Position numbers and translations under genes: made by a program
Shown: positions 10,572 through 59,116 of the stretch, in pieces
Position numbering within the stretch: the stretch's first letter is position 1
How the letters are laid out: each line of letters begins with the position of its first letter
Assembly (NCBI GenBank): GCA_045106765.1
Contig: JBGCFD010000046.1
Coordinates: 18,729-82,728 of the forward strand
Source: Saprospiraceae bacterium
Lineage (GTDB): Bacteria; Bacteroidota; Bacteroidia; Chitinophagales; Saprospiraceae
DNA: 64,000 nucleotides
Direction of reading: 5' to 3'
The notes under the pieces: model-generated
Told to the model about the DNA's origin: nothing
Seen by the model: the letters and a program-made list of their open reading frames with translations, nothing else
Databases searched by the model: none

Positions 10572-10693
10572 CTTCTAGAGTTTGATATATTATTGGGTCT
10601 TGTCTTTTGACAAGTGAGATATTTAATTTTTTTGATAAAAATTAAACACATCATTTTTGTCCTTTTTTAATAATTCTAATCTGACCTCTAAAT

Positions 10694-11647: not shown

Positions 11648-11889
11648 GGGGCAAAAATTTGTTTTTATTAATGCGCAAAATTACTTAAAAATACTCGTCA
11701 GGGGTATTTTTATTCGTTAATTTTTTGGATAAAAATTAGCAATTATTGAATGAAAATTCTAGAGAAAATCGTTCTTCAGTAAATCTTTTGGTCTAGCCAA
11801 AACTTGTCGAAGAACTAAGAATGTAAAGCTTGAGATTCAGAAAAAGAGGAAATATATGAATATAAAAAAACAGTAATACAAAGGTAAAA

Positions 11890-11936
11890 AATAGAAATCA
11901 CTTTTTGCATTTTTCAAATACAAAAAGTGATTTCTA
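11890..11936 (-). terminator. Terminator downstream of 11951-13243
   Basis: Perfect 17-bp stem atagaaatcactttttg / caaaaagtgatttctat. Confidence 0.7.
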
Positions 11937-11950
11937 TAAAGTTAAATATT

Positions 11951-13243: not shown

Positions 13244-13278
13244 GGGTATTTAGTTTTAAGTTTTTAAAAATTTGTTTT

Positions 13279-14577: not shown

Positions 14578-14782
14578 TTAAATTTTATACCAATCCACAA
14601 TCCAATATAGAATTATTAGATTCAAGTTGATTTTAAACAAGACATTTTTTGAAAGCCTAACAAAGCAGAAAACGTTAGGTAAAATAAAAGCAGTCGAAAT
14701 TAAACGATTTGGGAGAGAATTAATCTCAATAAATGTACTCTTTTAATCACGGAAAATGAAAAACAAAAACTCTATTAACAAA

Positions 14783-14819
14783 AAAGCGGTCAAAAAGAAT
14801 AATTCTTCTTGACCGCTTT
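14783..14819 (-). terminator. Terminator downstream of 14848-15252
   Basis: aaagcggtcaa / ttgaccgcttt stem with an inner extension, followed by a T-run on the minus strand. Confidence 0.6.
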
Positions 14820-14847
14820 AATTTATATATTTAGAGTAATGACTTTT

Positions 14848-15252
14848 CTATTTAAACTCTTTAATCAGTTCTCCTTCACTTGTTTTTAAGCTAATGAAGT
14901 ATTTTCCTTTTGGAAGATTTGAAAAACCCATTGCAAGATTTAATTCATCAGTTTGAAAAGATTCTTCGTAGATGCTCAATCCTTCTTCATTGTAAATGTG
15001 TAATACAAAAGTTTCCTTTTCTAAAAAAGAAGCAACAACTTTTACATTGTTTGAACTTTCCTGATCTAATAATTCGAATTTCTTTAAAGTGCTCAACTTT
15101 GGATCTCCTTTAGCAGTTTGGAGATCATAATTACCAGTTTCCGCTTCATAATTAAGCGCAATATCATGACTAATATCCATCGAATCTTGAGAAATAAGAA
15201 TTTGCGGAACAAGCATTAATGCCATCGCAAGGTGGAGTATCGATTTCTTCAT
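14848..15252 (-). CDS. Small secreted protein with a T9SS type A-like C-terminal domain
   Basis: I chose the start at MKKSILHLAMALMLVPQILISQ (signal peptide). The 27-aa upstream extension in the ORF track is non-hydrophobic. The C-terminus reads GKYFISLKTSEGELIKEFK. Confidence 0.6.
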   Translation of the reverse strand: MKKSILHLAMALMLVPQILISQDSMDISHDIALNYEAETGNYDLQTAKGDPKLSTLKKFELLDQESSNNVKVVASFLEKETFVLHIYNEEGLSIYEESFQTDELNLAMGFSNLPKGKYFISLKTSEGELIKEFK

Positions 15253-15429
15253 GGGATAAAGTTTTCTAAAAAAATTACTTTTCTGAATGTTTGATATGTG
15301 TTCAAGTACCTCAAATATATGCTTTTTTTTCATAACAAAGGGGATTAAATGTTAAAATTTGACATATATTGATACTATCATAGACGTAAAAACGGTAAAA
15401 CGTCACACGTTTAAACAATGTTCAACTAG

Positions 15430-17367: not shown

Positions 17368-19170
17368 CTAATTTATCTCTTCCAATATTTCCACTTCGGC
17401 TGCTTCAAAAACTTTTACCTTCAAATTAACCATAAAAATAGATCCGACATTCTCTACCGAAATCAATTCGATATAACCTCCATGATTCGAGACTATTTTA
17501 TTACAAATAGCTAGACCAACTCCTGAACCTTGATATTCAGATTGATTGTGCAATCGTTTAAAAATTTCAAAAATAGTTTTATGGTATTCAGGATTGATTC
17601 CAATTCCATTATCTTCTACTTTAAAAACCAAGTATTCATTTTCTTCAAAAACAGAAATCGTTACTTTCGGCTCGGTTGAATTATTATACTTCAAACCATT
17701 CTCAATTAAATTTTGAAAAAGCTGAACCATTTGATGTTGATTAGCTTCGATAGTTGGTAATTTTCCATACTTGATATGAGCATTTTTTTCCTCCAAATAA
17801 TGCGATAGATTTTTTTCTATTAAAAATAAAATCTGATTCATATCAACAGTTCCTAATTTCACTTCCTCCGATTTCACCAATGAGTACTCCAAAATTTCTT
17901 CAATTAAGTTGTACATACTTTGTGCATTCGATTGAGCAATATTGATGTAATCATTGATGTCTGAATCTGGATTATCTTTTAATTTTCTTTTAAGAAGAGA
18001 TAAAAAACTAGTAACATTCCTCAATGGAGTTTTTAAATCATGAGAAGCAATATAAGCGAATCGTTCTAACTCTTGATTTTTATTTTCCAATTCATCATTA
18101 TAATTTTTCAATTGATTTTCTTTTTCCACCATGAAAGTAATATCCATTGCTACAAAAGAATAACCGGTATGATTTTGCTTTTTAATAACTTTTGAGGTCA
18201 CCAAAAAATAGTTCTTCTCTTCTCCATTCGAGGTTAAATTAAAATAACTTTCCAATTTTCCATCAGGCTCAAGTTGAGCTATTTCTTTCTGAAATTCATA
18301 AAGATCTAATCCCTTAGAATGTTCTAACAATTCAATCATGTCGGCATTTACCTCTTCATTTTGAGGGAATAATATATCTTTGGCCAATTCATTTTTATGC
18401 TTTACAATAAAATTAACATCCGTTATTATCACCAAATTTGAAACAGACGATAAGATATCATCTAGAGCATCATGTGGATTTAATTCAAATAACTTATAAT
18501 TAGAATAAACCCAAGTTAAGACTCCAATTATTAAAACTAGGAAAGGTGAAATTTCAAAACTTGAAGGAGTCGTTTGACTTGGGATGATTAAAAAATTAAC
18601 AAACATAAATGTTGGAATGAGCGTAAAAGCAATCAATAATCCTCGTTTCCATTTTCGTTCTCTCTCTATTTTCGCTTTCCGATAAAAATAAAAACATCCC
18701 CCCATAATGAGAATCACTAATAGAAACCAGGCCATTTTTAAATGAACATAAATGCTATCTTTTTCTAAAATATATTTCCACTTTCCGTCCACTTTTTCTG
18801 GCAAAATTTCAACAGCACCATTCGTAACATAAAGCATGACAATACATGACAAAACTAAACCACTAGCTAATATTTTATTGTATAAAACTTCCCGAGGATT
18901 CTTCTTAAAAGGGCGAGTATAATAGACTACACAAATGCATTCCATGAGTGCGATAAAACTTATCAACCAACTTCTTTGAATATTATAATTTTCTACATCA
19001 TAAAGATGCCGAGCATTAAAAATCGACATTTCTGTAATTACCAACCCTGCACATAATAGCAAGACAACAGTATGGATACGACTAAATATCTTTTTATCTT
19101 GAACCATATAAAGATGTGTAGTCAATACGATCAAAAGTGTAAAAAGACCAATAAAAATAGCATTATTCAT
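17368..19170 (-). CDS. Sensor histidine kinase with a multi-TM N-terminal domain
   Basis: About 7 TM helices, a PAS-like linker, a coiled coil, the H-box FAYIASHDLKTPLRN, and HATPase N/G boxes (DNGIGI, GSGVGLAICNKIV). Confidence 0.9.
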   Translation of the reverse strand: MNNAIFIGLFTLLIVLTTHLYMVQDKKIFSRIHTVVLLLCAGLVITEMSIFNARHLYDVENYNIQRSWLISFIALMECICVVYYTRPFKKNPREVLYNKILASGLVLSCIVMLYVTNGAVEILPEKVDGKWKYILEKDSIYVHLKMAWFLLVILIMGGCFYFYRKAKIERERKWKRGLLIAFTLIPTFMFVNFLIIPSQTTPSSFEISPFLVLIIGVLTWVYSNYKLFELNPHDALDDILSSVSNLVIITDVNFIVKHKNELAKDILFPQNEEVNADMIELLEHSKGLDLYEFQKEIAQLEPDGKLESYFNLTSNGEEKNYFLVTSKVIKKQNHTGYSFVAMDITFMVEKENQLKNYNDELENKNQELERFAYIASHDLKTPLRNVTSFLSLLKRKLKDNPDSDINDYINIAQSNAQSMYNLIEEILEYSLVKSEEVKLGTVDMNQILFLIEKNLSHYLEEKNAHIKYGKLPTIEANQHQMVQLFQNLIENGLKYNNSTEPKVTISVFEENEYLVFKVEDNGIGINPEYHKTIFEIFKRLHNQSEYQGSGVGLAICNKIVSNHGGYIELISVENVGSIFMVNLKVKVFEAAEVEILEEIN

Positions 19171-19450
19171 AATTATAAACTATTGATTTTCAAACAGTTA
19201 TCTAAAAAAATAAATCATGGAGGGAAAAAACAGAAGGGAATTACTTAACAGGTATTGCAATTTCTATGCTCAATTTTTTTATCCTAATTAAGTTCTTAGG
19301 TAAAATATCAGATTTCAAATAATAGCTCAATCATGACGAATATTAAGTCACTCTACTCGCTTACACATACTTCATTTTTCATGAAGGAAAATCCCCCCAT
19401 CTTACGACTGTAAAAACGAAAAACAATTAATTCATCTAAAAAAATCAGTC

Positions 19451-20104
19451 ATGAGAGTATTGTCATTTATTATTATCATTCTTATTTCAAATGCTACTTT
19501 TGCAGCAGATCAACTTGCTATGATCCATCCAAATTTGAAAATCAATGGAGAGGAAGAGTTAATTTCAAAATTGGTTTTTAAAAATAACTTTGTTGATTTA
19601 GGAGAAGCAAAATTTGGAGAAAAATATACCCACTCTTTCGAATTCATCAATGAAGGAAATGCTACTTTGAAAATTGAAAATGCTTTTGCAAAAAGTGATC
19701 ATGCAGAAGTATTTAGTTTTTCTCCAACTATTGAACCTGGCAAATCAGGTTGGATTAGAGTTAGATTTGAATCTAAGCTTTCAATTGGAAAATTTGAAGA
19801 ATACTTTTTTATTCGATCCAATTCAGGTGCTAAAAAAACACTCTCAAGGTTAAAAATAAAATATGAGCTGTTTGAATATTTGGCGATTGGTGGTGATAAT
19901 GTGGAAGCAACAGATCAAATAAATATTCGGGAACAACCTTTATTAAACAGCCCTATAATTTACACATTAACTCAAGGAGAAACTTGCAAAATTATCGGTG
20001 ACGACCTCGGAGATTATGTAGAAAAATTTGATGATTCATTTTGGTTCAAAATAGAATCGGAAGGTCGAGTCGGATGGGTTTTAAGTGCATTAACAGAATT
20101 TTGA
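19451..20104 (+). CDS. Secreted protein with a DUF1573-like beta-sandwich (tentative) and a C-terminal SH3b-like domain
   Basis: Signal peptide, FEFINEGNATLKI motif, and a C-terminal ...WFKIESEGRVGWVLS SH3-like pattern. Confidence 0.7.
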   Translation: MRVLSFIIIILISNATFAADQLAMIHPNLKINGEEELISKLVFKNNFVDLGEAKFGEKYTHSFEFINEGNATLKIENAFAKSDHAEVFSFSPTIEPGKSGWIRVRFESKLSIGKFEEYFFIRSNSGAKKTLSRLKIKYELFEYLAIGGDNVEATDQINIREQPLLNSPIIYTLTQGETCKIIGDDLGDYVEKFDDSFWFKIESEGRVGWVLSALTEF

Positions 20105-20136
20105 TTAGGTGATTAGGTGATTAGGTGATTAGGTGA
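20103..20136. repeat. Octamer tandem repeat (gattaggt x4 plus ga) starting inside the stop codon of the upstream gene
   Basis: Read directly from the sequence. A partial inverted partner, ccttaatcacct, lies at 20166-20177. Confidence 0.9.
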
Positions 20137-20186
20137 ACGAGCTTCCAAATTATTGTTTCGCAAATCCTTAATCACCTGATTAACCA

Positions 20187-22259
20187 TTAAACTATTTCCA
20201 TGGGTGCTTCAACTTCAGCGAACTGTAAAGTAAAATAAAAAGTTGTCCCTGAAGTTCCATCTGATTCTACCCATATTTCACCTCCATGTCTTTGAACAAT
20301 TTTTTTGCAAATGGAAAGCCCCAAACCTGTACCTTGATATTCTTGTGAACTATGTAATCTTTTAAATAAAGAAAAAATTCTGTCATGATATTTTTTCTCA
20401 ATTCCAATTCCATTATCTTTTATGGCGATGCATGGTTTCCCATTTTTTTCAGAAACGGTAATTTTTATCATCGGTTGAACACCTTCAGGAATAAATTTAA
20501 TCGCATTGGCAATCAAATTTTGAAGAACCTGAAAAAGTTGAATTTGATTTCCCAAGACAATAGGAAGTTTTTCATATCTAATAATAGCATTTTGCTCTTG
20601 AATATTGACCTCCAAGGTTTGCAAAATTTTAGTCATTAATTCGTTCAAATCGACTGGATTAAAATTATCCTTTCCCTTTTCTACATTAGAATACGATAAA
20701 ACATCATCTAATAATTGATGCATATGACTAACCCCTTCTGTCACTAATCTCAAAAATTCTAATCCATTTTCATCAAGAACTTTGGCATATCTTTTTTCAA
20801 TCAACCCCGTGTAACTCATTACAGTTCTTAAAGGTGCTTTCAAATCATGAGAAGCGATATAAGCAAAATTTTCCAACTCAACATTGGCAACTTTAAGCTT
20901 TTCATTAGAATTATGCAAAGCTTTATTTTGTTTTTCAATTTGAATTTTATGATCTTTCAATTTTAAATTATAATAATATTGCTTCTTAAAAAACCAACTT
21001 ACAACACCAACAATGCCAATCAAAATGCAAAAAACAATACATATAAAAATATAATACAGCTTATTCAGCGCCTTATCTTTTTTCAATAATTCGAGTTCCT
21101 TCTTTTTCTGATCCAACTCAAATATGGAACTTAAATTTGCCAGTTCATTTTTGGTAATAGCTTCTTCTACAGAGTCTCTTAGTTCGTAATATTTTTTTTG
21201 AAAATCATAAGCTACTTTATTATTCCCACAATTAAAATTCACTTCAGAAATTTTCTTATAAACATTTTGGCGAACTGGAGTCACTTTATTTAAAATAGGA
21301 TTTTCCAAACATTGATTTAATATTTTTTTTGCTTGAACACATTTACCCATCAACATTTTTAACTCTGCCAAAGCAATCTGCGTTTGTATCGTTTCTTCTT
21401 TTTGATTGGATGCTTTTCGAATTGCCAAAGCAGTATTTAAATAATCTAATGCTAATTCAAGTTTATTTAATTTCAAATAAATTAATCCATAACCATGTGC
21501 GCAGTATCCTTTATGATATTGAGATTTGAGTCCAAATTTTGAACTGCAAGCCAAATTTTGATAATCAAGAGATTGATTATAATCCTTTAGTTCAAAAGAA
21601 ATAGTGCTCAACATATCATAACAATATCCAACATCTTCCTGTCTATCTAATGATTGATATAACTCAAGTGCTAGAGAAATTTTTTCCTTAGCTTTCTCAT
21701 ATTGTTTTTGCTCTTTATCCAATTCCGCCAAAGCATAAAAACTATTCGCTTGTCCTTGAATATCTCCTCTCCCTTTATTCAACTCCAATAATTTCATTCG
21801 ATAGTGATAAGCTTTATTAACCTGTCCCATATAGTAATAAGTATTACCAAAACCATTAAAAAGTGATGATGTATCCTTCATGGTTAACGAATAGGAGACT
21901 CCGCCAAAATCCATGGCCTTGTGGTAATAAACTAATGAACTATCATATTCAGATTGCCAAAAGTAGGAATGTCCCAGATTTAATAAACTATGGAAATTTA
22001 AGCTATCACAGCCTGCAGATTTTGCAACTGTTAAAGATTGAAAAAAATAATCTGTTGAGGTTTCATATTTTTCTACTTTAAAATAAGCTTCTCCTGTCTT
22101 GAATAGCAAATTGGCATAAGGTTTCTCAAATTGAGAATGAGGATAAGATTGTAAAGCTGTAACGCAACTATCAACCTTAGATTGATTGGAAAAACTAGGT
22201 AAACTTCCTAATAAGATCAAGAATAGTAAAAGACTTTTTGGTTTTTGGAGTACTTTCAT
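20187..22259 (-). CDS. Sensor histidine kinase with a predicted periplasmic TPR domain
   Basis: Signal peptide, about 350 aa of TPR-like repeats, one TM helix (YYIFICIVFCILIGIVGVVSWFF), H-box FAYIASHDLKAPLRT and an HATPase domain. Confidence 0.9.
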   Translation of the reverse strand: MKVLQKPKSLLLFLILLGSLPSFSNQSKVDSCVTALQSYPHSQFEKPYANLLFKTGEAYFKVEKYETSTDYFFQSLTVAKSAGCDSLNFHSLLNLGHSYFWQSEYDSSLVYYHKAMDFGGVSYSLTMKDTSSLFNGFGNTYYYMGQVNKAYHYRMKLLELNKGRGDIQGQANSFYALAELDKEQKQYEKAKEKISLALELYQSLDRQEDVGYCYDMLSTISFELKDYNQSLDYQNLACSSKFGLKSQYHKGYCAHGYGLIYLKLNKLELALDYLNTALAIRKASNQKEETIQTQIALAELKMLMGKCVQAKKILNQCLENPILNKVTPVRQNVYKKISEVNFNCGNNKVAYDFQKKYYELRDSVEEAITKNELANLSSIFELDQKKKELELLKKDKALNKLYYIFICIVFCILIGIVGVVSWFFKKQYYYNLKLKDHKIQIEKQNKALHNSNEKLKVANVELENFAYIASHDLKAPLRTVMSYTGLIEKRYAKVLDENGLEFLRLVTEGVSHMHQLLDDVLSYSNVEKGKDNFNPVDLNELMTKILQTLEVNIQEQNAIIRYEKLPIVLGNQIQLFQVLQNLIANAIKFIPEGVQPMIKITVSEKNGKPCIAIKDNGIGIEKKYHDRIFSLFKRLHSSQEYQGTGLGLSICKKIVQRHGGEIWVESDGTSGTTFYFTLQFAEVEAPMEIV

Positions 22260-25522: not shown

Positions 25523-25903
25523 ATGAAAAAGATATTTCACCTATTCCTATTTTTGAGCTGTGCAAATGTAATGTTAGGACAAGTTGGATTGCAAGTGGAA
25601 GGCACTCAATTTGCAAAAGAAAATCAAGTAGATTGGGAAAAAGGCAAAGAGTCGGTGAACGTTTTTTTTACAAAAAAAAATCAATCACAAATACCTGTAG
25701 ATTTAAAAAAGTACTTTTTGGCTGAGAATGTTTCAGCTAATTCGTCCAATATTTTTACTCAAAAAAATACTTCCAATGAGTTAGCATTTTTTTGTAGGAT
25801 AGAAGAAAAAATTGAACTCAAATCTAACATTCCAGTTAGATTTCGTTTGGGAGAAGTTCAAGCTGTCGATCAAAAAGAAGGAAAATGGAAACAATTTCAG
25901 TAA
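25523..25903 (+). CDS. Secreted hypothetical protein
   Basis: Signal peptide MKKIFHLFLFLSCANVMLGQ. No recognisable family. Confidence 0.55.
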   Translation: MKKIFHLFLFLSCANVMLGQVGLQVEGTQFAKENQVDWEKGKESVNVFFTKKNQSQIPVDLKKYFLAENVSANSSNIFTQKNTSNELAFFCRIEEKIELKSNIPVRFRLGEVQAVDQKEGKWKQFQ

Positions 25904-25909
25904 AAGAAA

Positions 25910-28063
25910 TTAATTCATTTCCAAACCTAATCCTTGAACATTAAGTGGTGCTTCCATTTTCATAGAAGTCATATCTGTTTCGATATTAAGCGTAAAATAG
26001 AACGTAGCTCCTTGGCCCACTTCTGATTCAACCCAAATCTCTCCATTATTTTGATTAACAATTTTTTTACAAATAGCAAGCCCTACCCCTGTTCCTTCAT
26101 ACTCATCTTTACCATGTAATCTTTTGAAAATCTCAAAGACTCTATCTTTGAATTCCATATCGATTCCAATTCCATTATCTTTTACAAAGTACACTAAATC
26201 ATTTCCTTGGAATTTTTCTTTTAATCCAATTTCTACCTGTGGATTTTCCCTATTCGTGTATTTGATACTATTACTAATTAAATTTTGGAAGAGTTGATTT
26301 AAGTGAGATTTATGCCCTTTTACCTCTGGTAGATTAGCCACCTTGACATCAACATTATGTTCCATTATTTTCCCTTTCAAGGTTTCGATTACCGTATCGA
26401 CGACTTCATTTAAAGAAACAGGTTCTTCATAAATCTCCTCATTTTCCAGTTTAGAATACATCAAAACTTCATGTAACAAGTCATACATCCTACTCACATT
26501 AGTAGTGATAAAATCAATATAGTCATCTGCTTCTGATCCTAATTTCCCTTTAAATCTTCGTTTGAGTAAGGTGGCAAATGATCCAATATTTCGAAGTGGT
26601 TCTTTTAAATCATGAGAAGCAATATAAGCAAAGCGTTGAAGTTCGTCATTCTTGCGCTCCAACTTTTTATTTTGAATGAGACTCTGCTCATTTTGTTCTT
26701 TAAGTAATTGATTGGTTTCAACTTGTTTGAGGTGAGCCTTTTCAAGCTCCATATTTTGTTGTTGGATTTGATAATTCTTATCTGTCTGTATTTTATTATG
26801 TTCCGTTTGAGTTTTATACTTAGAATGTACCTGCCATAGAATAACCATCAAAGCAAGTAAACCTACAATCAAAAAATTACGATAAGTACTTTGCAATTCT
26901 GCGTCTCTTTTTAAAATATCTTTTTCCTTTTTTGTAATCTCATACTGCATTTTAGTATCAGACATTTTTTGAAGCGTGGCTTCGTTTCGAAGAGAATCTT
27001 TTAAATCGGTGAAATTCCGATAATATTTATTAGCTTCTTCATAATCTCCAATATTTTCTAAACTTCTAGCCATTGATTTATAAACATCCACTAAGATTGG
27101 TCTCGCACCTAAACTTTGAGCTATATCAAGACTTTCATTTAAATACCTCATTCCTTTTTTTTCTTCCCCCTTATTGATATAAATTTCACCAATAGCTTTT
27201 GAACTTCCAATTTGTCCCCATCTATCATCATTCTCAATATTGATCTTATGGGATTGATTAAAATAATCCAAGGCTTTATTTAAATCTCCTCTTGATTGAT
27301 AATTATCTCCAAGATTAAAAGTAACATAGGCTAATCCAGATTTTCGATTAGATGCAATAGAAAGTTCATAAGCTTTCAAATTATATTTTAGAGATAAATC
27401 TATTTGGGCCATTCTAGAATACGCTGCACCAATGGCACCATAACTAGACAATTCCATTACCTTATTGTTAATTTCAACTGATAATTGTAAACATTTCTCA
27501 TAATACTCAATGGCTTTATGGTAATTTCCTTGAAAGAAATGGATTCCTCCAATTTTGTAATATGAGTAAGTTATTCCAGCTTGATCTTGAAGTTCTTCTC
27601 TTATTTGTAATGCTTTGAAGTGATATTCAAAAGCCAACTCATTATTCCCAATAACTTGATATGCTTTAGCTAATTGATAACTGGCATCTCCAAGTTGTTT
27701 ACCGCCATCCGAATTAATATTCTTAATTAATTTAGTCAACAACGTAATTGCTTCTTCATATTTATGAGATGCAATTAAACATTTTCCCATTTGATACTGA
27801 ATCTTACTTTTGAATTTTATTTCATCATTCCTGTCGGCAATTGAATCTGCAAGAATTAAATATTTATATGCTTTTGTAGTTTCTTTATGCTTTAAATTTG
27901 CTTTCCCTAATTCAAAATAAGCATCTAATTGTTCTTTAATATTTTCACTTTCAATTTTGATCTTCAAAGTATTTTCTAAACTATCCAAATTTGAAGCAGA
28001 TAGAGAAAAACTCATCAACATACTTAAAAGAAAAATTATCTGGTATTTTCGGGACAGTATCAT
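25910..28063 (-). CDS. Sensor histidine kinase with a predicted periplasmic TPR domain (paralogous architecture to 20187-22259)
   Basis: Signal peptide, about 360 aa of TPR repeats, one TM helix (FLIVGLLALMVILWQV), a long coiled coil, H-box FAYIASHDLKEPLRN and an HATPase domain. Confidence 0.9.
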   Translation of the reverse strand: MILSRKYQIIFLLSMLMSFSLSASNLDSLENTLKIKIESENIKEQLDAYFELGKANLKHKETTKAYKYLILADSIADRNDEIKFKSKIQYQMGKCLIASHKYEEAITLLTKLIKNINSDGGKQLGDASYQLAKAYQVIGNNELAFEYHFKALQIREELQDQAGITYSYYKIGGIHFFQGNYHKAIEYYEKCLQLSVEINNKVMELSSYGAIGAAYSRMAQIDLSLKYNLKAYELSIASNRKSGLAYVTFNLGDNYQSRGDLNKALDYFNQSHKINIENDDRWGQIGSSKAIGEIYINKGEEKKGMRYLNESLDIAQSLGARPILVDVYKSMARSLENIGDYEEANKYYRNFTDLKDSLRNEATLQKMSDTKMQYEITKKEKDILKRDAELQSTYRNFLIVGLLALMVILWQVHSKYKTQTEHNKIQTDKNYQIQQQNMELEKAHLKQVETNQLLKEQNEQSLIQNKKLERKNDELQRFAYIASHDLKEPLRNIGSFATLLKRRFKGKLGSEADDYIDFITTNVSRMYDLLHEVLMYSKLENEEIYEEPVSLNEVVDTVIETLKGKIMEHNVDVKVANLPEVKGHKSHLNQLFQNLISNSIKYTNRENPQVEIGLKEKFQGNDLVYFVKDNGIGIDMEFKDRVFEIFKRLHGKDEYEGTGVGLAICKKIVNQNNGEIWVESEVGQGATFYFTLNIETDMTSMKMEAPLNVQGLGLEMN

Positions 28064-28111
28064 ATGTTATTTTAATTCGGTATATAAAATTATTAAACTG
28101 TATTACAAAGA

Positions 28112-28141
28112 AAATGCCATCTTACAAGTAAGATGGCATTT
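28112..28141 (-). terminator. Terminator of GG-leader peptide gene 1
   Basis: Perfect 13-bp stem aaatgccatctta / taagatggcattt with loop caag. Confidence 0.7.
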
Positions 28142-28163
28142 AGTTTTTGATGAAGTTTTTAAA

Positions 28164-28334
28164 TTATCCATCAGTTCCTTGGTTCGGAGGATAACCTCCG
28201 CCTCCGCCTTGGTTACTACCAGTATCGGAATCATCTCCTCCGTTACCTTTTTTACCTCCTTTGAGGTTTTTCATGTCTCGAACATCGAGGACCTGCATAG
28301 TCCGACGTTCCATGATTGATTTTAAGCTAGTCAT
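28164..28334 (-). CDS. Double-glycine-leader peptide precursor, copy 1 (56 aa)
   Basis: MTSLKSIMERRTMQVLDVRDMKNLKGG / KKGNGGDDSDTGSNQGGGGGYPPNQGTDG. It has its own terminator, and its leader is near-identical to copy 2. Confidence 0.6.
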   Translation of the reverse strand: MTSLKSIMERRTMQVLDVRDMKNLKGGKKGNGGDDSDTGSNQGGGGGYPPNQGTDG

Positions 28335-28375
28335 CTTGAAAAATTTTTCATGGTTAACAATAGATTAATAAAGAT

Positions 28376-28394
28376 CATTTGGAATATCCAAATG
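28376..28394 (-). promoter_or_regulatory. Conserved 7-bp inverted repeat upstream of peptide gene 1
   Basis: catttgg-aatat-ccaaatg. The same stem with a different loop lies upstream of copy 2. Confidence 0.35.
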
Positions 28395-28550
28395 AATTAT
28401 CTTAAATCGGGGGAAAAATTTTCAATAAATTATTTTTGAGGGAAAATTAATATGGGGAGAAAAATAGAGTGGGAGATGTTTTTAAAGTTGCTAAAAATAT
28501 GCCAAATTTTGTTTTTTGGTTAAACCTTAGGTTTTTAGGAGGAATTATTT

Positions 28551-28739
28551 TTAATAAATGTCAAATAAATTAGCCATACTCATTGGTCATGCAACATTAT
28601 TTCTTTCTACAAAATCTACTCCAACTATTCTGGTTTTTACTGAATCTAAAAAAATATAGTTAAGTTCCTTAAAGTTTAATTCTCTGGATGTTGGATTAAA
28701 AAGTTGCAATTTAAAGCAAAGTACTAAATCCAATTTCAT
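28551..28739 (-). pseudogene. Decayed duplicate of the last ~63 codons of bshB1
   Basis: Collinear with 29138 to about 29335 (KLDLVLCFK.Q.FNP.S.EL...FLDSVK...GVDF...NVA). It has internal deletions, an in-frame stop, and lacks the 5-prime two-thirds of the gene. Confidence 0.8.
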
Positions 28740-28750
28740 AAAAAATGCAA

Positions 28751-28787
28751 AAAAAAATGCCACCTTAAAATAAGGTGGCATTTTTTT
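28751..28787 (-). terminator. Terminator of GG-leader peptide gene 2
   Basis: aaaaaaatgccacctta / taaggtggcattttttt stem with flanking A and T runs. Confidence 0.7.
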
Positions 28788-28792
28788 AGACA

Positions 28793-28939
28793 TTAGTCAT
28801 CTTCTGTTGGTGGTGGAGGAAGGCCTCCGCCATTACTATTACCTCCTTTGAGGTTTTTCATATCTCGAATGTCAAGGACCTGCATAGTCCGACGTTCCAT
28901 AATTGATTTTAATCTAGTCATTTTTGAAAAATTTTTCAT
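28793..28939 (-). CDS. Double-glycine-leader peptide precursor, copy 2 (48 aa, or 42 aa from the Met at 28921)
   Basis: MKNFSKMTRLKSIMERRTMQVLDIRDMKNLKGG / NSNGGGLPPPPTEDD. Confidence 0.6.
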   Translation of the reverse strand: MKNFSKMTRLKSIMERRTMQVLDIRDMKNLKGGNSNGGGLPPPPTEDD

Positions 28940-28963
28940 GGTTAATAATTGATTAATAAAGGT

Positions 28964-28982
28964 CATTTGGCATAACCAAATG
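28964..28982 (-). promoter_or_regulatory. Conserved 7-bp inverted repeat upstream of peptide gene 2
   Basis: catttgg-cataa-ccaaatg. Confidence 0.35.
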
Positions 28983-29137
28983 AGATATCTTAAATCGGGG
29001 GAAAAATTTTCAATAAATATTATGGGGGAAAACTAATATGGGAAGAAAACATAATGGGGAATGTTTCTAGGATTGCTAAAAATATGCCAATCTTTATTTT
29101 CTTGACTAAACTATTAAGTTCTTAGGAGGGATTATTT

Positions 29138-29854
29138 TTAATAAATGTCAAATAAATTGGCAATGCCCATTGGTCGTGCAACATTAAATCCTTCTGCAAA
29201 ATCTACACCAATTATTCTTCCGTAGACACTACTTTTGGCTTTTACTGAATCTAAAAAACCTTTATTAGATATAGGAGAATCTAATTCCTTGGATTTCGGA
29301 TTAAAAAATTGGGATTTAAAACAAAGTACTAAATCCAACTTTTTGTCCATATATGGTGATATATCTACCACAAAATCAGGATGAAGTGTATGATCTTGGA
29401 TATAATGATAAACTGCCTTTGGTCTCCATCGCTCTTGTAATTTCTTTTTATCATAAGTTTTAACTTTGGCAAGTCCTGCAATAAAGCAAGCATCTGAAGT
29501 CAATTTTGCAGCACGTGCATGATCAGGGTGTCGATCAGATAAAGCATTGGCCAAAACTATATCAGGTTGATATTTTCGAATAACCTGAGCTATTTTTTTT
29601 AGGTTTACTTCTGTATGTTGAAAAAAACCATCTTTCATTTTAACATTCTCACGAACTGAAGCACCCATCATTTTTCTAGCAGCTTCCGCCTCTTTGACTC
29701 TCAATGGACCAGAACCACGTGTGCCTAATTCTCCTCTAGTCAAATCTAAGATTCCAACTTTTTTACCCATTTCAATATGCTTGAGTAAAGTTCCTGCACA
29801 ACCTAATTCTACATCATCAGGATGGACACCAATTGCTAGAATATCTAATTTCAT
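29138..29854 (-). CDS. bshB1: PIG-L/LmbE-family deacetylase, BshB1-like (bacillithiol biosynthesis)
   Basis: MKLDILAIGVHPDDVELGCAGT...DLTRGELGTRG...DRHPDH matches the BshB1 pattern. Confidence 0.8.
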   Translation of the reverse strand: MKLDILAIGVHPDDVELGCAGTLLKHIEMGKKVGILDLTRGELGTRGSGPLRVKEAEAARKMMGASVRENVKMKDGFFQHTEVNLKKIAQVIRKYQPDIVLANALSDRHPDHARAAKLTSDACFIAGLAKVKTYDKKKLQERWRPKAVYHYIQDHTLHPDFVVDISPYMDKKLDLVLCFKSQFFNPKSKELDSPISNKGFLDSVKAKSSVYGRIIGVDFAEGFNVARPMGIANLFDIY

Positions 29855-35541: not shown

Positions 35542-37281
35542 CTAGCGAATCAACGAAACATCACCTTTTAATTCCTCTACCCCATCTGTCGTTTCTATTC
35601 TTATCATATAAATCAACACATCAGTTGGATGTGGATTCCCATCAACCTCTCCATTCCAAGGTGTTTTTTCATCATGCACTAAATTTCCCCAACGATTAAA
35701 AATTTTAAAGTCGACAATTTCCACACTATTCCCTTCGATGACTGGTCCGAAAGTATCATTCAGTCCATCTCCATCTGGAGTAAAAACATTTGGCATTTGC
35801 CAGTCTCCACAAGCATCAATTACAATACTAGTCTCAGCAGTACAATCATTTTCATCAGATACAATAACTGAATATTCATCTCCATCTTCAATTGTAATAA
35901 CAGCACTCGTTTCTCCATTTGACCATTCATAACTTTCAAAATCTCCTGCATTTAGAAGTACAGGCAAATCCCCACAAAGATCAATTCCATGTGGTGTCGT
36001 TATCTCTGCGGCAATTGCCTCTGAACTATTTACCATAACTTGAAAAGCTCCTGAACATTGATTCGCGTCTTCAATGACTACGAAAAAACTCCCTGCAGCC
36101 ACATCTATAAATACATTTTCAACTTGAAAATTAACCCCATCTAAACTGTATTGAAATGGTGCTTGTCCAGCACCAGGAAAGACTTCGAGCATTCCATTTT
36201 CAAATCCGCAAGTCGTGTGATCAATCATCACTTCATCAATAACTGGATTTTGTGGAGCATCAATACTTACATTTACAATCGTTGCACAACCAACTGCATC
36301 TGTAACCGTCAAGGCATGATTTCCTTCTTCCAGATTCATTGCTTCCTCCGTCGTTTCTCCATTATCCCAAAGGTAAGAGTAGGGTTCAAATCCACCATTC
36401 ACCGCAACTGAAGCTGATCCTAGACTTCCATCACAACCTGTTGACGTTTGTGCAGCAATCACTCCAGAAATATCTGAAACATAAACCGTAACTGAACTCT
36501 CCTCTATCAAAATTGGAGAAAAAGAGATATCGTCCAATGCAAAATCATTGCCACCAACAGATACATTTTGATTGACTATACAAATCTCTACACTTGTATT
36601 ATTATCTGATTCCCACGTTTGAAAAAACTGCTCCCAAACACATGTTCCTGATGGAGCCGTAAAAATCGAACCTAACAAAGTTCCGTTAATTGAAAATTGT
36701 AATTCGGCAGGATTCCCTACTTCAACTGAAGTAATCCAAGTCGAAAATTGGTAAGTCGTATTTTCTTGAATCGCTATCGTTTGACACCAGATTTCTTGAT
36801 TCAACGTTGCTGAACCATTGACCACTAACATATTTCCAAAACCAGTAGTGTGATCATCGCAATTTGCAAAATTCGAATGTGCTAAATTGGGATTAGTAAC
36901 AACCGCATAAGTTCCTTCATCCGACAAGTCTCCCCATGTACCTCCACTCGTATTTGGACCATAAAGATATTCTGTAGTAAAACCAGAATTTCCAGCAGAA
37001 AAATCACCATTGGTAATAACTGAATTTCCTAAAATACTTCCCACAACTGTATAGGTTGTGGTCATCGGTGGAGTCACCGTTGGGTTTGCTGTACTTGGGC
37101 TAGTAATCCAAGTATTTGGAGTCCAAGTGTAAGTATCAAATATATCTCCCTCCGCTGCTAAAGCAACAGTTTCTCCTTGGCAGATAGTGTCTTGTGCTAC
37201 AGTTGCAGTTATTGAAAGTTGAGCAAAAATACTCGTAGATAGTACTAATAAAAGAAAAACTAGGAGGTTCTTTTTCATCAT
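35542..37281 (-). CDS. T9SS type B CTD protein with a CBM-like jelly-roll domain and SprB-type repeats
   Basis: Signal peptide. It contains ...GNDFALDDISF (a CBM-like end), GGFEPYSYLWDNGET (SprB repeat), and the C-terminus NVFTPDGDGLND...FNRWGNLV...GDVSLIR. Confidence 0.88.
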   Translation of the reverse strand: MMKKNLLVFLLLVLSTSIFAQLSITATVAQDTICQGETVALAAEGDIFDTYTWTPNTWITSPSTANPTVTPPMTTTYTVVGSILGNSVITNGDFSAGNSGFTTEYLYGPNTSGGTWGDLSDEGTYAVVTNPNLAHSNFANCDDHTTGFGNMLVVNGSATLNQEIWCQTIAIQENTTYQFSTWITSVEVGNPAELQFSINGTLLGSIFTAPSGTCVWEQFFQTWESDNNTSVEICIVNQNVSVGGNDFALDDISFSPILIEESSVTVYVSDISGVIAAQTSTGCDGSLGSASVAVNGGFEPYSYLWDNGETTEEAMNLEEGNHALTVTDAVGCATIVNVSIDAPQNPVIDEVMIDHTTCGFENGMLEVFPGAGQAPFQYSLDGVNFQVENVFIDVAAGSFFVVIEDANQCSGAFQVMVNSSEAIAAEITTPHGIDLCGDLPVLLNAGDFESYEWSNGETSAVITIEDGDEYSVIVSDENDCTAETSIVIDACGDWQMPNVFTPDGDGLNDTFGPVIEGNSVEIVDFKIFNRWGNLVHDEKTPWNGEVDGNPHPTDVLIYMIRIETTDGVEELKGDVSLIR

Positions 37282-37455: not shown

Positions 37456-38040
37456 TTAGTTTTTATCTAATTGGTTTAATCTTTCAATGAAATTGTTACT
37501 TTGATTTTCATCTGAATTCATCAACTCCGTAAATGATTTTGAATAAAGATATTTGTTTTTTAGATCATCATACATAAAAAAAACTATCTCAAATTCATTC
37601 TCTTCTTTCGGTTGATTTGTATCAAATGTTAATAAACCAAAATCATAAAAATCTGCGAAATAAAAATATCCCTTTCGAAGAATTTCTTTTGAAAAACTGG
37701 AATCCAAATTCATTTTTTCCAATTTTTCTAATTTCGATTTAGGAAAAAAATGATGAAGTCTAATTGCTACGTCTTGTAAATGCAATTCCATAAAATATTT
37801 ATATTGCAAAAAATGCTTATACGAATTAGGTAGTTTACAATTCAACTCTTCTTCGAATTCTAATAATTCTTTATCTGTTATTTGACTTGGGATTGCTTTC
37901 CATCCAATATAATCCTCCTCTGTTTCAAGTGATAAATCTATCATCTCTTTTGGTACTTCTTCAATTATACCTGTCATGGGAAAAAATTGCTCCCTCATCT
38001 TTTGAAGAGAATCATCTACTATTTGATAAATTGATTTCAT
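37456..38040 (-). CDS. SMI1/KNR4 (SUKH-1) family protein, possible immunity protein
   Basis: ELLEFEEELNCKLPNSYKHFLQY matches the SMI1_KNR4 N-terminal signature. No signal peptide. Confidence 0.6.
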   Translation of the reverse strand: MKSIYQIVDDSLQKMREQFFPMTGIIEEVPKEMIDLSLETEEDYIGWKAIPSQITDKELLEFEEELNCKLPNSYKHFLQYKYFMELHLQDVAIRLHHFFPKSKLEKLEKMNLDSSFSKEILRKGYFYFADFYDFGLLTFDTNQPKEENEFEIVFFMYDDLKNKYLYSKSFTELMNSDENQSNNFIERLNQLDKN

Positions 38041-39763: not shown

Positions 39764-41680
39764 ATGACTAACCTAAAATGTACTTCAAAAAAATCGATTA
39801 ATATTCTTTTCCTATTATTTTTATTATGCCTTGGAAATTCTGTTTTTGCACAAACACCCACCGCTCAAGATTGTCTCGGAGCTATCCCTATTTGTGCTCA
39901 AGCTTATACCGAAACCACCTCTCCTTCTGGCTCCGGAAATTATCCTAACGAAATAAATGGAACTTCTCAAGGTGGAATTTGCTGTATGGATAATGAGTTA
40001 AATTCTATCTGGTACACATTTACTGTTAATCAATCTGGTGACTTTGGATTTACCTTGACACCTAATAATTCGATTGATGATTACGACTGGGCCATGTTTG
40101 ATATTACCAATGGTAGCTGTGAAGATATTTTTAATGATATTTCGATGCAAGTAAGTTGTAATGCTGCTGGAGGAGGCACTTGCAATGGAAATACAGGAGC
40201 AAACGGAGGATCTACTTATAATAATCAAGGGGCAGGTTGTAATAGTATTAACCCTAGTCAGTTTGCAGGAAATAGTGCCGATAATGCCCTTGTCCCAGTT
40301 CAGCAAGGCAATACTTATGTATTGGTAATTTCCAATTGGTCAGGTTCAACCAATGGATACACGATTGATTTTGGGGTCTCTGGAAATATTGGAATTATCG
40401 ATATGATTGATCCTGAAGTTTCAGATATCACGCTCCCTGGCGATTGTGGAGGTGATGAAATGGAAGTTACCTTTTCGGAATATATTCAATGCGCTACCAT
40501 TAGTGGAAACAATTTTCAAATCTCAGGCCCAGGCGGTCCGTATACTGCTACTGTATCAGCTAATGCTTGTAACCAAGGTGGTGCTTACGATAATATTTTC
40601 ACAATTAATATTAATCCACCAATTACAGAAATTGGAAATTATTCCATCGCTCTGGTGACCAATGGAACAACAGATCTTTTAGATTTATGTGAAAATCCAT
40701 TAGTGATTGACACCTTTTATTTTTCAGTATTGAATAGTCCTTTGCCCAATATTAATATTGGAAACGATACTATTTTATGTAATGGAGAATCCGTCAACAT
40801 TGACGTTTCACTTCCCAATGCAGAATCATATTCTTGGTCTGATGGAACAGGTGGGCCGATTATTTCAATCACCGATCCTGGAACTTATACAGTTACGATC
40901 ACCAATATTTGTAATTCAGTAACGGATAATATTTTGGTCAATTTTGTTCCATTACAAACCGTGGATGTGAACCTGGGATCAGATACACTACTTTGTCCTG
41001 GAGAAATTTATGCGCTTGATGGAACGTGGATTGGAGGTGTTCAATATCTATGGCAAGATGGATCGACAGATCCAATTTATCAAGTTTCGGAAACAGGTTT
41101 TTATGAAGTTCAAATTCTTGGTGCCTGTGGAGAAACAGGTTTTGCGGCTGTCCAAATAGATTATGATGAGACAGAATTAAACTTGAATTTAGGACCTGAC
41201 AGTTTACTTTGTGAAGAGGATGGTTTTTATGTCATTGATGTATTCGATCCAAATGTAGAGGAATATATTTGGAGTGATGGCACAACAGGTTCTACTTTAC
41301 AAGTAACCGAAAATGGTATTTATGGCGTAACGATTTCTGACAATTGTAATGTATTGATAGATGAAGTCAATCTTGAATTTACCAATTGTACCCTTTGTGA
41401 AGTTTATGTTCCAAATGCATTTTCGCCAGACTTTAATGGTTACAATGATTATTTTTTGCCTTACTCCAATTGTTCATTACTTAATTATTCTATGAAAATT
41501 TTTAATCGTTGGGGCGCTCTAGTTTATACGTCGACCAATCCAGATGAAGGATGGGACGGCAGATTTAACAACAAAGATATTCCTGAAGGAGTCTATGTTT
41601 ACCTCCTTGAGTTTGAGGTAAATCAGCGAGGAGAAAATATTCCTAAAAGATTATCAGGTGACCTTACCGTTGTAAAATAA
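39764..41680 (+). CDS. T9SS type B CTD surface protein
   Basis: Signal peptide, a Cys-containing N-terminal domain (DCLGAIPIC...NSIWYTF...DDYDWAMF), four Ig-like LC.GE...Y.W.DGS modules, and the C-terminus PNAFSPDFNGYND...FNRWGALVY...GVYVYLL...GDLTVVK. Confidence 0.88.
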   Translation: MTNLKCTSKKSINILFLLFLLCLGNSVFAQTPTAQDCLGAIPICAQAYTETTSPSGSGNYPNEINGTSQGGICCMDNELNSIWYTFTVNQSGDFGFTLTPNNSIDDYDWAMFDITNGSCEDIFNDISMQVSCNAAGGGTCNGNTGANGGSTYNNQGAGCNSINPSQFAGNSADNALVPVQQGNTYVLVISNWSGSTNGYTIDFGVSGNIGIIDMIDPEVSDITLPGDCGGDEMEVTFSEYIQCATISGNNFQISGPGGPYTATVSANACNQGGAYDNIFTININPPITEIGNYSIALVTNGTTDLLDLCENPLVIDTFYFSVLNSPLPNINIGNDTILCNGESVNIDVSLPNAESYSWSDGTGGPIISITDPGTYTVTITNICNSVTDNILVNFVPLQTVDVNLGSDTLLCPGEIYALDGTWIGGVQYLWQDGSTDPIYQVSETGFYEVQILGACGETGFAAVQIDYDETELNLNLGPDSLLCEEDGFYVIDVFDPNVEEYIWSDGTTGSTLQVTENGIYGVTISDNCNVLIDEVNLEFTNCTLCEVYVPNAFSPDFNGYNDYFLPYSNCSLLNYSMKIFNRWGALVYTSTNPDEGWDGRFNNKDIPEGVYVYLLEFEVNQRGENIPKRLSGDLTVVK

Positions 41681-43830: not shown

Positions 43831-43923
43831 TTTTCATTTTTTCGCCATCTACAATAATTTTAGCATCTTGCAGTTCCAATTTTAAAACGAAAAAAAATTT
43901 AAAACAAGCAACGAAAACACATC

Positions 43924-45999: not shown

Positions 46000-46025
46000 A
46001 AATTATTTTCAACCAATAAATTTAA

Positions 46026-53884: not shown

Positions 53885-53897
53885 TTATAATCATTTC

Positions 53898-59072: not shown

Positions 59073-59116
59073 TCATTTTGTATATTTCAACTCTTTTAAG
59101 AAAAAATATTAAATCT

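Follow-up and report, generated by a model that had tools for sequence, protein, structure and literature searches.

Two small neighbouring open reading frames on the minus strand of a 64-kb window (the whole stretch of Saprospiraceae DNA analysed here, 64,000 nucleotides) encode peptides with nearly the same N-terminus but different C-termini. This locus raises the question of whether these are genuine genes and, if so, whether they encode bacteriocin-like products or something else.

Two tandem small genes share a double-glycine-type leader

To answer this question, we first re-examined both ORFs and could confirm the observation. Copy 1 (28334->28164, minus strand, 56 aa), which is proximal to the downstream kinase gene described below, comprises a leader at 28334-28254 (MTSLKSIMERRTMQVLDVRDMKNLKGG) and a core at 28253-28167 (KKGNGGDDSDTGSNQGGGGGYPPNQGTDG). 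It is absent from the public protein collection and is therefore unannotated. Copy 2, the distal one (28921->28793, minus strand), encodes 42 aa from the Met shared with copy 1, or 48 aa from an ATG at 28939, with the core NSNGGGLPPPPTEDD, and is identical to a family protein (P0005, MFK8006048.1) annotated as “hypothetical protein” in a Saprospiraceae MAG. From the shared Met, the 27-aa leaders differ only at S3R and V18I, that is 6 of 81 nt at the DNA level, of which 4 are synonymous and 2 are not. The original prediction took the shared Met as the start because a 1-nt indel puts the upstream ATG out of frame in copy 1. This indel is real, and the out-of-frame ATG is the normal state in the family, the 1-nt insertion that creates the in-frame ATG at 28939 being found here and, among the family proteins, only in P0009.

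As had been proposed, each gene is followed by its own strong intrinsic terminator on the minus strand, a 13-bp stem followed by a T-run at 28141-28112 for copy 1 and a 17-bp stem followed by a T-run at 28787-28751 for copy 2. The same hairpin follows the peptide gene in all related loci. The similarity between the two genes is not due to chance, since they are copies in a direct tandem duplication of about 600 bp that also copied the 3' end of the upstream PIG-L gene. Unit 2 (29341-28741) contains PIG-L codons ~172-238, the promoter region, peptide copy 2 and its terminator, whereas unit 1 (28740-28105) contains a degraded copy of the PIG-L 3' end (28736-28553, 85% identical, frame broken), the promoter region, peptide copy 1 and its terminator.

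Conserved elements precede each peptide gene

We then inspected the sequences upstream of both genes, all on the minus strand. First, a sigma-54-type -24/-12 box (TGGCATATTTTTAGCA) lies at 28489..28504, 170 nt upstream of the copy 1 ATG, and the same box lies at 29074..29089 upstream of copy 2. These are the only two matches in the window, one upstream of each peptide gene, against 0.21 expected. The box is conserved at -163 to -195 in 14 loci while its flanks vary, and it is 16/16 identical between the two copies against about 85% in the surrounding sequence; it suggests activator-dependent transcription, but its function is inferred. Second, a hairpin (TCATTTGG-loop-CCAAATGA) is found in the presumed 5' UTR of copy 1 (28375..28395) and again upstream of copy 2 (28963..28983). 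Variants in two related loci (L008 and L011) keep pairing through U.G on the sense strand, and distant loci carry hairpins of different sequence at the same place. The RNAalifold consensus of this hairpin was weak (-1.07 kcal/mol) because MAFFT misaligned the three divergent sequences, so that the claim rests on inspection of each sequence. Third, the 34 nt before the copy 1 start codon (28335..28368, TTAATCTATTGTTAACCATGAAAAATTTTTCAAG) are nearly invariant, with a mean identity of 0.99 in a 6-locus profile, and identical or nearly so even in the distant loci L016, L018 and L019. They include a mini-uORF, MKNFSR* (28351-28331), whose stop overlaps the main ATG as ATGA.

No known RNA family reached its gathering threshold in the 64 kb, and the sub-threshold hits in 28050-29200 are all terminator hairpins.

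The peptides belong to a narrow Saprospiraceae family

By searching for homologues, we found a narrow Saprospiraceae (Bacteroidota) family of about 50 peptides, with 36 homologues by word-indexed search and 20 representative clusters by exhaustive HMMER. Exact-match searches with the window's PIG-L protein and with P0005 returned no contig. Close relatives differ only synonymously in the leader, for example by 7 synonymous and 0 non-synonymous changes between loci L001 and L002, and pN/pS is 0.40 over 19 distinct leader DNA versions. Thus, the ORFs are real, conserved coding genes. A 27-aa leader ending in NLKGG is present in both copies and in all full-length family members, and L, M, L and M sit at -4, -7, -12 and -15 before GG, which is the rule for PCAT substrates (10.1101/442517).

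The original prediction considered everything after GG as unalignable apart from a general composition pattern. This is overstated, since across the family the cores share an invariant Pro-Pro preceded by a Gly run (G-G-x-P-P) inside an anionic Gly/Pro-rich peptide. Given that Gly GGN and Pro CCN codons are complementary, we tested whether this motif could instead be an RNA hairpin. Observed folding energies equal those of synonymous recodings and codon permutations (mean z 0.16 and 0.02, n=18) and third codon positions vary freely, so this possibility was rejected. A sortase-like LPxTG reading of LPPTG or LPPPTG in some cores was rejected as well, because most members have N/I/M/V/Y-PP instead.

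These data also bear on the possibility that the peptide is a small cytoplasmic regulator, with a functional N-terminal amphipathic segment that binds some partner, a disordered, freely evolving tail, and no export or cleavage. The N-terminus is indeed far more conserved than the rest, and no exporter was found in the 64 kb or in the flanks of related loci. However, the tail is not free, as GGxPP is kept at the peptide level with free synonymous variation, and the hydrophobic spacing and the terminal GG match export leaders exactly. We consider this reading very unlikely.

A bacteriocin or RiPP identity is not supported

The original prediction compared the leaders to those of class II bacteriocins and Bacteroidota GG-type natural-product precursors, and named profile searches and a search for an exporter as tests. 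TIGR04149 (GG_sam_targ_CFB), a family of Bacteroidota radical-SAM-modified RiPP precursors whose leader also ends in KGG, gave only 16.8 and 17.8 bits for the two window peptides against a cut-off of 25, and weak sub-threshold hits in 26 of 28 family members (best E 6.2e-5). Beyond a very weak leader_Chryseo match (E 0.5), NCBIfam gave no other hit, including none to TIGR01847 or class II models, and Pfam gave none. Moreover, Pfam scans of 40 window ORFs found no C39-peptidase ABC exporter, HlyD partner, immunity or maturase gene in the 64 kb, and no exporter, HlyD, immunity, radical-SAM/SPASM or other maturase gene was found in the flanks (up to 10 kb each side, shorter on small contigs) of more than 10 related loci. 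The only radical-SAM gene of the window lies 30 kb away (59018-60511) and is of the HMPTM zinc-ribbon type. No small membrane protein gene lies in the unit, and scans with regular expressions found no other GG-leader ORF in the window.

The window cores are anionic (net about -2 and -3), with 0-1 hydrophobic residues and no Cys, which is unlike membrane-active peptides, and they lack the Cys-rich targets of TIGR04149 precursors. Tandem amplification with variable cores, seen in the window (2 copies), L008 (3 copies) and L018 (at least 2), is common for bacteriocin genes. Nevertheless, a bacteriocin or RiPP, next to a kinase that is there by coincidence or merely regulates production, does not explain why the hypervariable block described below runs on into the kinase sensor domain, and this reading is unlikely. 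Thus, the original interpretation is only partly supported: the coding genes, the start and the leader architecture hold, whereas the bacteriocin or natural-product framing does not find support. It also missed the tandem duplication, the linkage to the downstream kinase and the shared hypervariable block of core and sensor.

We also compared the peptides to RaxX of Xanthomonas, a Gram-negative, non-antimicrobial, Pro-rich and hydrophilic secreted signal peptide whose leader has hydrophobic residues at -4/-7/-12 and is cut after Gly-Gly by a peptidase-containing ABC transporter (10.1101/442517). The copy 1 core bears a superficial GGG-x-Y-PPP resemblance to it. However, the GGG of RaxX belongs to its leader, its active feature is a sulfated Asp-Tyr, raxST/raxA/raxB are adjacent and its receptor is a plant kinase. 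Here, Tyr occurs only in the window's copy 1, preceded by Gly rather than Asp, and no sulfotransferase or PCAT lies nearby. Homology to RaxX was therefore rejected.

The peptide genes are linked to a TPR histidine kinase

In every locus with enough flanking sequence, about 20 distinct loci, the order is PIG-L, then 1-3 peptide genes, then, co-oriented, a histidine kinase with a periplasmic TPR sensor. This includes the distant loci L016, whose kinase is 60% identical, and L018. Loci retrieved through the kinase alone all carry an intact peptide ORF upstream where enough upstream sequence is present. In the window, this kinase (25910..28063, minus strand, 717 aa) has a signal-like N-terminus, a periplasmic TPR domain (aa 26-392, 27988-26888), a single TM at aa 396-415, a coiled coil, and HisKA plus HATPase domains. 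This topology places the TPR domain outside the cytoplasm, where only an exported peptide could reach it. No response regulator lies in the window or in any related locus retrieved. Since all loci come from one clade with broadly conserved synteny, adjacency alone is weak evidence. Metagenome loci with TPR kinases at 40% identity or less have no family peptide and no credible GG-leader ORF, and the TPR domain has no homologues between 53% and 31% identity. The module is therefore lineage-specific, without a general association between TPR kinases and GG peptides.

Given this arrangement, we asked whether the short ORF could be a cis-regulatory leader for the kinase gene, with ribosomes slowing at the invariant Pro-Pro and so modulating read-through at the terminator, the peptide itself having no function. 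The PP motif lies near the C-terminus, a terminator starts 14-27 nt after the stop codon, the kinase start is about 50-100 nt further on with only weak promoter-like matches of its own, and the predicted mRNAs are unusually structured (z = -4.4 and -4.6). However, attenuation does not need a 27-aa N-terminus under amino-acid constraint with a canonical GG-leader pattern. Also, the distances from the conserved N-terminus to PP and from PP to the stop vary widely, some cores (family proteins P0008 and P0025) carry three GGGLPP repeats, and the distal copies of tandem arrays are not adjacent to the kinase. Together with the recoding result above and the fact that no antiterminator alternative was identified, this makes the attenuation reading very unlikely.

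Peptide core and kinase sensor diverge together

We next measured nucleotide identity along the locus. Between genomes, identity is about 90% up to the GG site, falls to 40-70% through the core and the TPR sensor, then returns to about 88% in the kinase domain. For the window against L001, it is 88-93% in gpx and PIG-L, 87-94% in the promoter and leader, 53-71% over most of the stretch from the GG site to about kinase aa 350 (a few 100-nt windows there reach 76-86%) and mostly 84-91% in the TM and kinase part. The 6-locus profile gives 0.99 at the initiation region, 0.39-0.47 in the core, 0.57-0.66 in the first TPRs and 0.85-0.93 over most of the TM/kinase part.

By NG86 estimates, the TPR part has raised dS as well as dN, with dS of 1.3-1.5 against 0.45-0.7 in the flanks and 0.57 in its own kinase domain, which fits old alleles or recombination. 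With dN/dS of 0.06-0.18, positive selection on the TPR domain is not supported. Two other kinases of the same genomes that lack a peptide gene show background dS of 0.58-0.68 in their sensor parts and no such island.

Across 13 loci, core similarity tracks TPR similarity after controlling for kinase-domain similarity (partial Mantel r=0.59, p about 2e-4). Loci with GGGLPPP[TI] cores share 86-92% identical TPR domains, and the most aberrant core (GGWGPED, locus L028) goes with the most divergent TPR (51-60%) despite a kinase domain 73-82% identical to the others. On the other hand, the window's distal core (GGGLPPPPTEDD) resembles the L001/L002 type, yet the window's TPR is only 68-69% identical to theirs. 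Co-variation with the extracytoplasmic part of the kinase rather than its cytoplasmic part further argues against a cytoplasmic regulator.

However, core and sensor are only about 100 nt apart, so that shared genealogy through physical linkage could produce both the island and the Mantel correlation without any binding, and the low-complexity core is prone to slippage and may evolve fast for mutational reasons. It is thus possible that an exported peptide has nothing to do with the kinase, serving for example as a matrix, adhesion, metal-binding or inter-species signal peptide, and that the divergence reflects a local recombination or mutation hot spot with hitchhiking of adjacent segments. 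Raised dS across core, terminator and TPR is what a single imported or anciently diverged segment would give. Against this, the island boundaries coincide with functional boundaries, the GG cleavage site and the end of the periplasmic domain, the peptide and this kinase orthologue are never found apart in about 20 distinct loci, and the control kinases show no island. We therefore regard this reading as unlikely, although it is the strongest of the alternatives.

A candidate signal peptide and its proposed receptor

Taking these observations together, we favour, with a probability of about 0.5, an exported signal peptide and its cognate sensor kinase. In this view, the two ORFs are tandem paralogues of a Saprospiraceae-specific family of small translated peptides, each gene being its own transcription unit. 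A C39-peptidase ABC transporter encoded elsewhere would cleave after NLKGG and export the short core, which would be sensed by the TPR domain of the kinase encoded immediately downstream. Counting against this view, no such transporter, HlyD partner or response regulator lies in the 64-kb window or in any related locus retrieved. Core and TPR sensor would form one linked hypervariable cassette, bounded by the conserved leader and the conserved transmembrane/kinase part, and behave as specificity alleles, and the duplication would give this genome two different signal variants. Our data establish coding constraint, the leader pattern, the family, synteny, the divergence island, the co-variation and the duplication, whereas expression, export, cleavage, binding to and activation of the kinase, and sigma-54 or feedback control are inferred from sequence alone.

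There is precedent in the Gram-positive ComC/ComD (with ComAB) and BlpC/BlpH cassettes, in which a GG-leader peptide gene sits directly upstream of, and on the same strand as, its sensor kinase. There, GG-leader signal peptides bind the kinase encoded in the same locus and pherotype changes in the peptide are matched by changes in the receptor (PMC7595303); the exporter may be unlinked, as comAB is. The present locus differs by its diderm phylum, a soluble periplasmic TPR array with a HisKA kinase instead of a polytopic membrane sensor (HPK10 type), the lack of an adjacent response regulator (LytTR in those systems), a strong terminator between peptide and kinase genes, a sigma-54-like promoter box, and an anionic Gly/Pro-rich rather than cationic or amphipathic core, and no sequence homology to any such peptide was detected. 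In staphylococcal agr, for which specificity groups are mentioned in the literature, a contiguous hypervariable block flanked by conserved sequence covers the AgrD signal peptide and the N-terminal sensor part of AgrC. AgrD, however, is processed by AgrB into a thiolactone and has no GG leader, the receptor class differs, and here no processing enzyme lies inside the block.

A more far-reaching possibility, which we hold only tentatively and consider less likely than not, is a peptide-pheromone system of the pherotype kind in Bacteroidota, in which core and TPR groove are maintained as co-evolving specificity alleles, a sigma-54 promoter drives the peptide gene in an enhancer-binding-protein feedback loop, and tandem amplification would let one cell emit several signal variants. 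Peptide quorum sensing through a GG-leader pheromone and a cognate histidine kinase is textbook for Firmicutes but, in the papers we searched, is not described for Bacteroidota, nor for a periplasmic TPR sensor.

If the link proves to be only hitchhiking, what remains is a well-defined, lineage-restricted family of Gly/Pro-rich peptides, exported by inference and of unknown role. Otherwise, since TPR-domain sensor kinases appear to be common in Bacteroidota and no ligand is known to have been identified for them, a genetically linked, co-varying peptide gives a concrete ligand candidate and provides natural “specificity alleles” for studying how a TPR sensor may read a peptide. The finding would also show that sub-60-aa genes missed by annotation, as copy 1 was, can be the variable half of a signalling pair.

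Both peptide genes lie in a direct tandem duplication

By reading positions 27900-29300 on the minus strand and listing the ORFs, we found both small ORFs exactly as proposed in the original prediction, whose observation therefore held. Copy 1 (28334->28164) encodes MTSLKSIMERRTMQVLDVRDMKNLKGG followed after the Gly-Gly by KKGNGGDDSDTGSNQGGGGGYPPNQGTDG, and copy 2 (28921->28793) encodes MTRLKSIMERRTMQVLDIRDMKNLKGG followed by NSNGGGLPPPPTEDD, with an in-frame ATG at 28939 that adds MKNFSK. The two leaders differ at 2 of 27 residues, that is 6 of 81 nt at the DNA level, 4 of them synonymous, and each gene ends in a strong hairpin plus T-run (28141-28112 and 28787-28751, respectively).

In addition, we found that the two genes are copies in a direct tandem duplication, which had been missed in the original prediction. 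Unit 2 (29341-28741) and unit 1 (28740-28105) each carry the last ~67 codons of the upstream PIG-L (BshB-like) gene, about 215 nt of intergenic sequence, the peptide gene and its terminator. In unit 1, the PIG-L fragment (28553-28736, minus strand, codons ~172-238) is degraded, being 85% identical with a broken frame, and the 68-aa ORF 28587-28793 listed there is a relic of it rather than a gene. However, the last 28 nt around the old stop codon are 100% identical between the copies, which could mark an upstream activator site. The degraded fragment gives a rough neutral yardstick, against which the leader is 93% identical, a 16-nt promoter-like box is 100% identical and the core is unalignable beyond its first few codons.

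The peptides form a narrow gene family

A profile of the two peptides found 36 small proteins of 38-80 aa, and the sources that name an organism almost all indicate Saprospiraceae MAGs, one being labelled Granulosicoccus. One of these proteins (P0005, MFK8006048.1, “hypothetical protein”) is identical to copy 2 from the shared Met, whereas copy 1 is absent from the protein collection searched. An exhaustive HMMER search of 1.84 billion representatives found only 20 clusters, including more distant members with about 50% identical leaders, and a scan of one genome per GTDB species found five loci, each titled as a Saprospiraceae MAG. Close relatives differ in the leader only by synonymous changes, and over 19 distinct leader DNAs pN/pS is 0.40. 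Moreover, loci retrieved through the neighbouring kinase alone still carry an intact peptide ORF. Together, these sequence data indicate that the ORFs are translated genes.

The upstream ATG is out of frame in nearly all members, where it forms a six-codon mini-ORF (MKNFSR followed by a stop) whose stop overlaps the main ATG. It is in frame only in window copy 2 and in P0009, another protein of the family. Thus, the shared Met is the start, as had been argued in the original prediction.

Leader and core of the peptides

First, we observed that the leader has L, M, L and M at -4, -7, -12 and -15 before Gly-Gly, which is the spacing that defines substrates of peptidase-containing ABC transporters (10.1101/442517). 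NCBIfam gave only sub-threshold matches to TIGR04149, the Bacteroidota GG-leader RiPP family, with scores of 16.8-17.8 bits against a cut-off of 25 and weak hits for 26 of 28 members, and there was no hit to class II bacteriocin models or to Pfam. A small protein acting in the cytoplasm remains an alternative, but we consider it very unlikely.

Second, contrary to the original prediction, the cores are not unrelated. Aligned across the family, they share a basic start (K/R after GG), a Gly run, an invariant Pro-Pro in the context G-G-x-P-P (where x is L, N, I, M, V, C, Y or T), and an acidic or Gly tail, and two members carry GGGLPP three times in one core. Since Gly (GGN) and Pro (CCN) codons are complementary, we tested whether this motif is really an RNA hairpin. 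It is not, as its stability equals that of synonymous recodings. We also judged very unlikely the possibility that the ORF is a Pro-Pro stalling or attenuation leader for the kinase. Third, the window cores are anionic, almost devoid of hydrophobic residues and Cys-free.

Peptide genes are linked to a sensor kinase gene

Pfam scans of 40 ORFs across the window found no C39 peptidase, ABC exporter, HlyD, immunity-like gene, RiPP maturase or response regulator. We therefore regard a bacteriocin or RiPP precursor as an unlikely reading. Hence, the interpretation offered in the original prediction, that these are processed and exported peptides with double-glycine leaders of the bacteriocin or natural-product kind, was only partly supported.

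The local gene order on the minus strand is glutathione peroxidase, PIG-L deacetylase, peptide(s), then a 717-aa histidine kinase (28063-25910). This kinase has a signal-like N-terminus, TPR repeats over aa ~26-392, one strong TM at 396-415, a coiled coil, and HisKA/HATPase domains, so that the TPR domain must be periplasmic. Every related locus with enough flank has the same order, with 1-3 peptide genes directly upstream of the orthologous kinase, including the distant loci L016 (kinase 60% identical) and L018, as well as the metagenome loci that were found with the kinase as query and have upstream sequence. In contrast, more distant TPR kinases (40% identity or less) have no such peptide, and the TPR domain has no homologues between 53% and 31% identity. 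Peptide and kinase are thus a lineage-specific pair. Tandem amplification has happened repeatedly, with 2 copies in the window, 3 in the related loci L008/L009 and at least 2 in L018 and L019.

Two further orphan histidine kinases lie within 10 kb (17368-22259), one of 600 aa and the other a second periplasmic-TPR kinase of 690 aa that is 28% identical to the peptide-linked one. Convergent with the peptide-linked kinase gene, and ending 7 nt from it, lies a gene (25523-25903, plus strand) for a 126-aa lipoprotein-like secreted protein with no Pfam match, which is conserved in synteny but evolves fast (54-90% identity, dN/dS 0.09-0.37). Elsewhere in the window, a cluster of type IX secretion cargo (5286-15333, minus strand) holds a 1761-aa SprB/PKD/cohesin protein with a CHU_C tail, a PorP/SprF gene, and three Por_Secre_tail proteins, two of which have cohesin (and one also dockerin) domains. 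A SUKH-1 (SMI1/KNR4) protein (37456-38040, minus strand), from a family often serving as immunity proteins of polymorphic toxin systems, lies next to a 579-aa ORF (35542-37281) whose orthologue in related loci carries SprB and CHU_C domains. Three tandem paralogous ~690-aa membrane proteins with a PMT_2 (dolichyl-phosphate-mannose-type glycosyltransferase) domain (41734-48107, plus strand) follow a CHU_C/T9SS-tail protein (39764-41680). Finally, a restriction-modification pair (53177-55115) comprises an EcoO109I-like endonuclease (53177-53884, plus strand) and a C5 cytosine methylase with an N-terminal MerR-type HTH (53898-55115, minus strand).

Core and sensor domain share a hypervariable block

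We then compared the window with the related locus L001. Nucleotide identity is 88-93% in gpx and PIG-L and 87-94% in the peptide promoter region and leader. It drops at the GG site to 53-71% over most of the core, the terminator region and kinase codons ~1-350, with a few 100-nt windows at 76-86%, and returns to mostly 84-91% in the TM and kinase domains and beyond. A six-locus profile showed the same shape, with 0.99 at the initiation region, 0.90 in the leader, 0.39-0.47 in the core, 0.57-0.66 in the first TPRs, and 0.85-0.93 over most of the stretch from the TM onward. At the protein level, the TPR part is 64-76% identical between genomes whose flanking proteins are mostly 92-98% identical and whose kinase domains are 88-93% identical.

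Both dN (0.24) and dS (1.3-1.5) are raised in the TPR part, compared to a dS of 0.45-0.7 in the flanks and 0.57 in the kinase domain of the same gene, while dN/dS stays at 0.06-0.18. This pattern is that of old, divergent alleles or imported segments, not of positive selection. By contrast, two other sensor kinases of the same genomes that have no peptide gene show background dS (0.58-0.68) in their sensor parts.

Across 13 distinct loci, core similarity follows TPR similarity after controlling for kinase-domain similarity (partial Mantel r 0.59, p about 2e-4). The five loci with GGGLPPP[TI] cores share 86-92% identical TPR domains and the two IPGGGNPPPPPDS loci share 88%, whereas the aberrant GGWGPED core (locus L028) goes with the most divergent TPR (51-60%). 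However, core and sensor are only about 100 nt apart, and common descent of one recombining segment could give both the divergent block and the correlation. An exported peptide whose function is unrelated to the kinase is therefore the main rival, although we consider it less likely than a signal sensed by that kinase.

Putative regulatory region of the peptide genes

A box TGGCATATTTTTAGCA (28489-28504 and 29074-29089, minus strand) has GG and GC at the canonical sigma-54 -24/-12 spacing, the consensus being TGGCAC-N5-TTGCT (PMC12316311). It occurs only twice in the 64 kb, once upstream of each copy, against 0.21 expected, but as the two copies descend from one duplication this counts as a single independent occurrence. 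The box is conserved at -163 to -195 in 14 loci while its flanks vary. L008 copy 1 and L016 have GT at -12, and the inner copies of tandem arrays lack the box.

If this putative promoter is used, the 5' UTR is about 145 nt. The presumed UTR is pyrimidine-rich (28396-28478 and 28984-29063, minus strand), with 3-4 repeats of CUCCC(C)/UCCCCC that are conserved in distant loci and are complementary to the GGAGG runs of the KGG and Gly-run codons. The whole predicted mRNAs fold far better than shuffles (z = -4.4 and -4.6). The UTR also contains a hairpin (28395-28375 and 28983-28963), which is kept by U.G wobble changes and replaced by different-sequence hairpins in distant loci. It ends in an initiation region of ~34 nt before the start codon (within 28331-28368 and 28922-28956, minus strand) that is almost invariant even between the most distant members and more conserved than any coding part. 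This region contains a 14-nt palindrome TGAAAAATTTTTCA and the mini-uORF MKNFSR, whose stop overlaps the main ATG (ATGA), although copies 2 and 3 of L008 lack the uORF ATG. A sigma-54 promoter needs an enhancer-binding response regulator, which would fit a kinase-driven feedback loop, but this is speculative.

A candidate signal peptide and its proposed sensor kinase

Literature searches found no description of a GG-leader peptide paired with a TPR kinase, or of peptide quorum sensing, in Bacteroidota. In ComC/ComD and BlpC/BlpH, peptide and receptor lie in one locus and pherotype changes are matched in the receptor (PMC7595303). The agr hypervariable region is another example of this signature. 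The system described here would work like such a pheromone with its cognate kinase, but it lacks the features that define the receptor and regulator classes of that family, and it also falls below threshold for TIGR04149.

Taking all our observations together, we favour an exported signal peptide sensed by the adjacent periplasmic TPR kinase, with a probability of about 0.5. The duplication, the gene family, the linkage and the hypervariable block come directly from the sequence comparisons, whereas export by an as yet unidentified transporter, cleavage, binding to the kinase and signalling through an as yet unidentified response regulator are inferred. Within these limits, a conserved export leader, a variable mature part, a kinase gene immediately downstream, and a hypervariable block that spans the mature peptide and the extracytoplasmic sensor domain together form the signature of pheromone/receptor specificity alleles.
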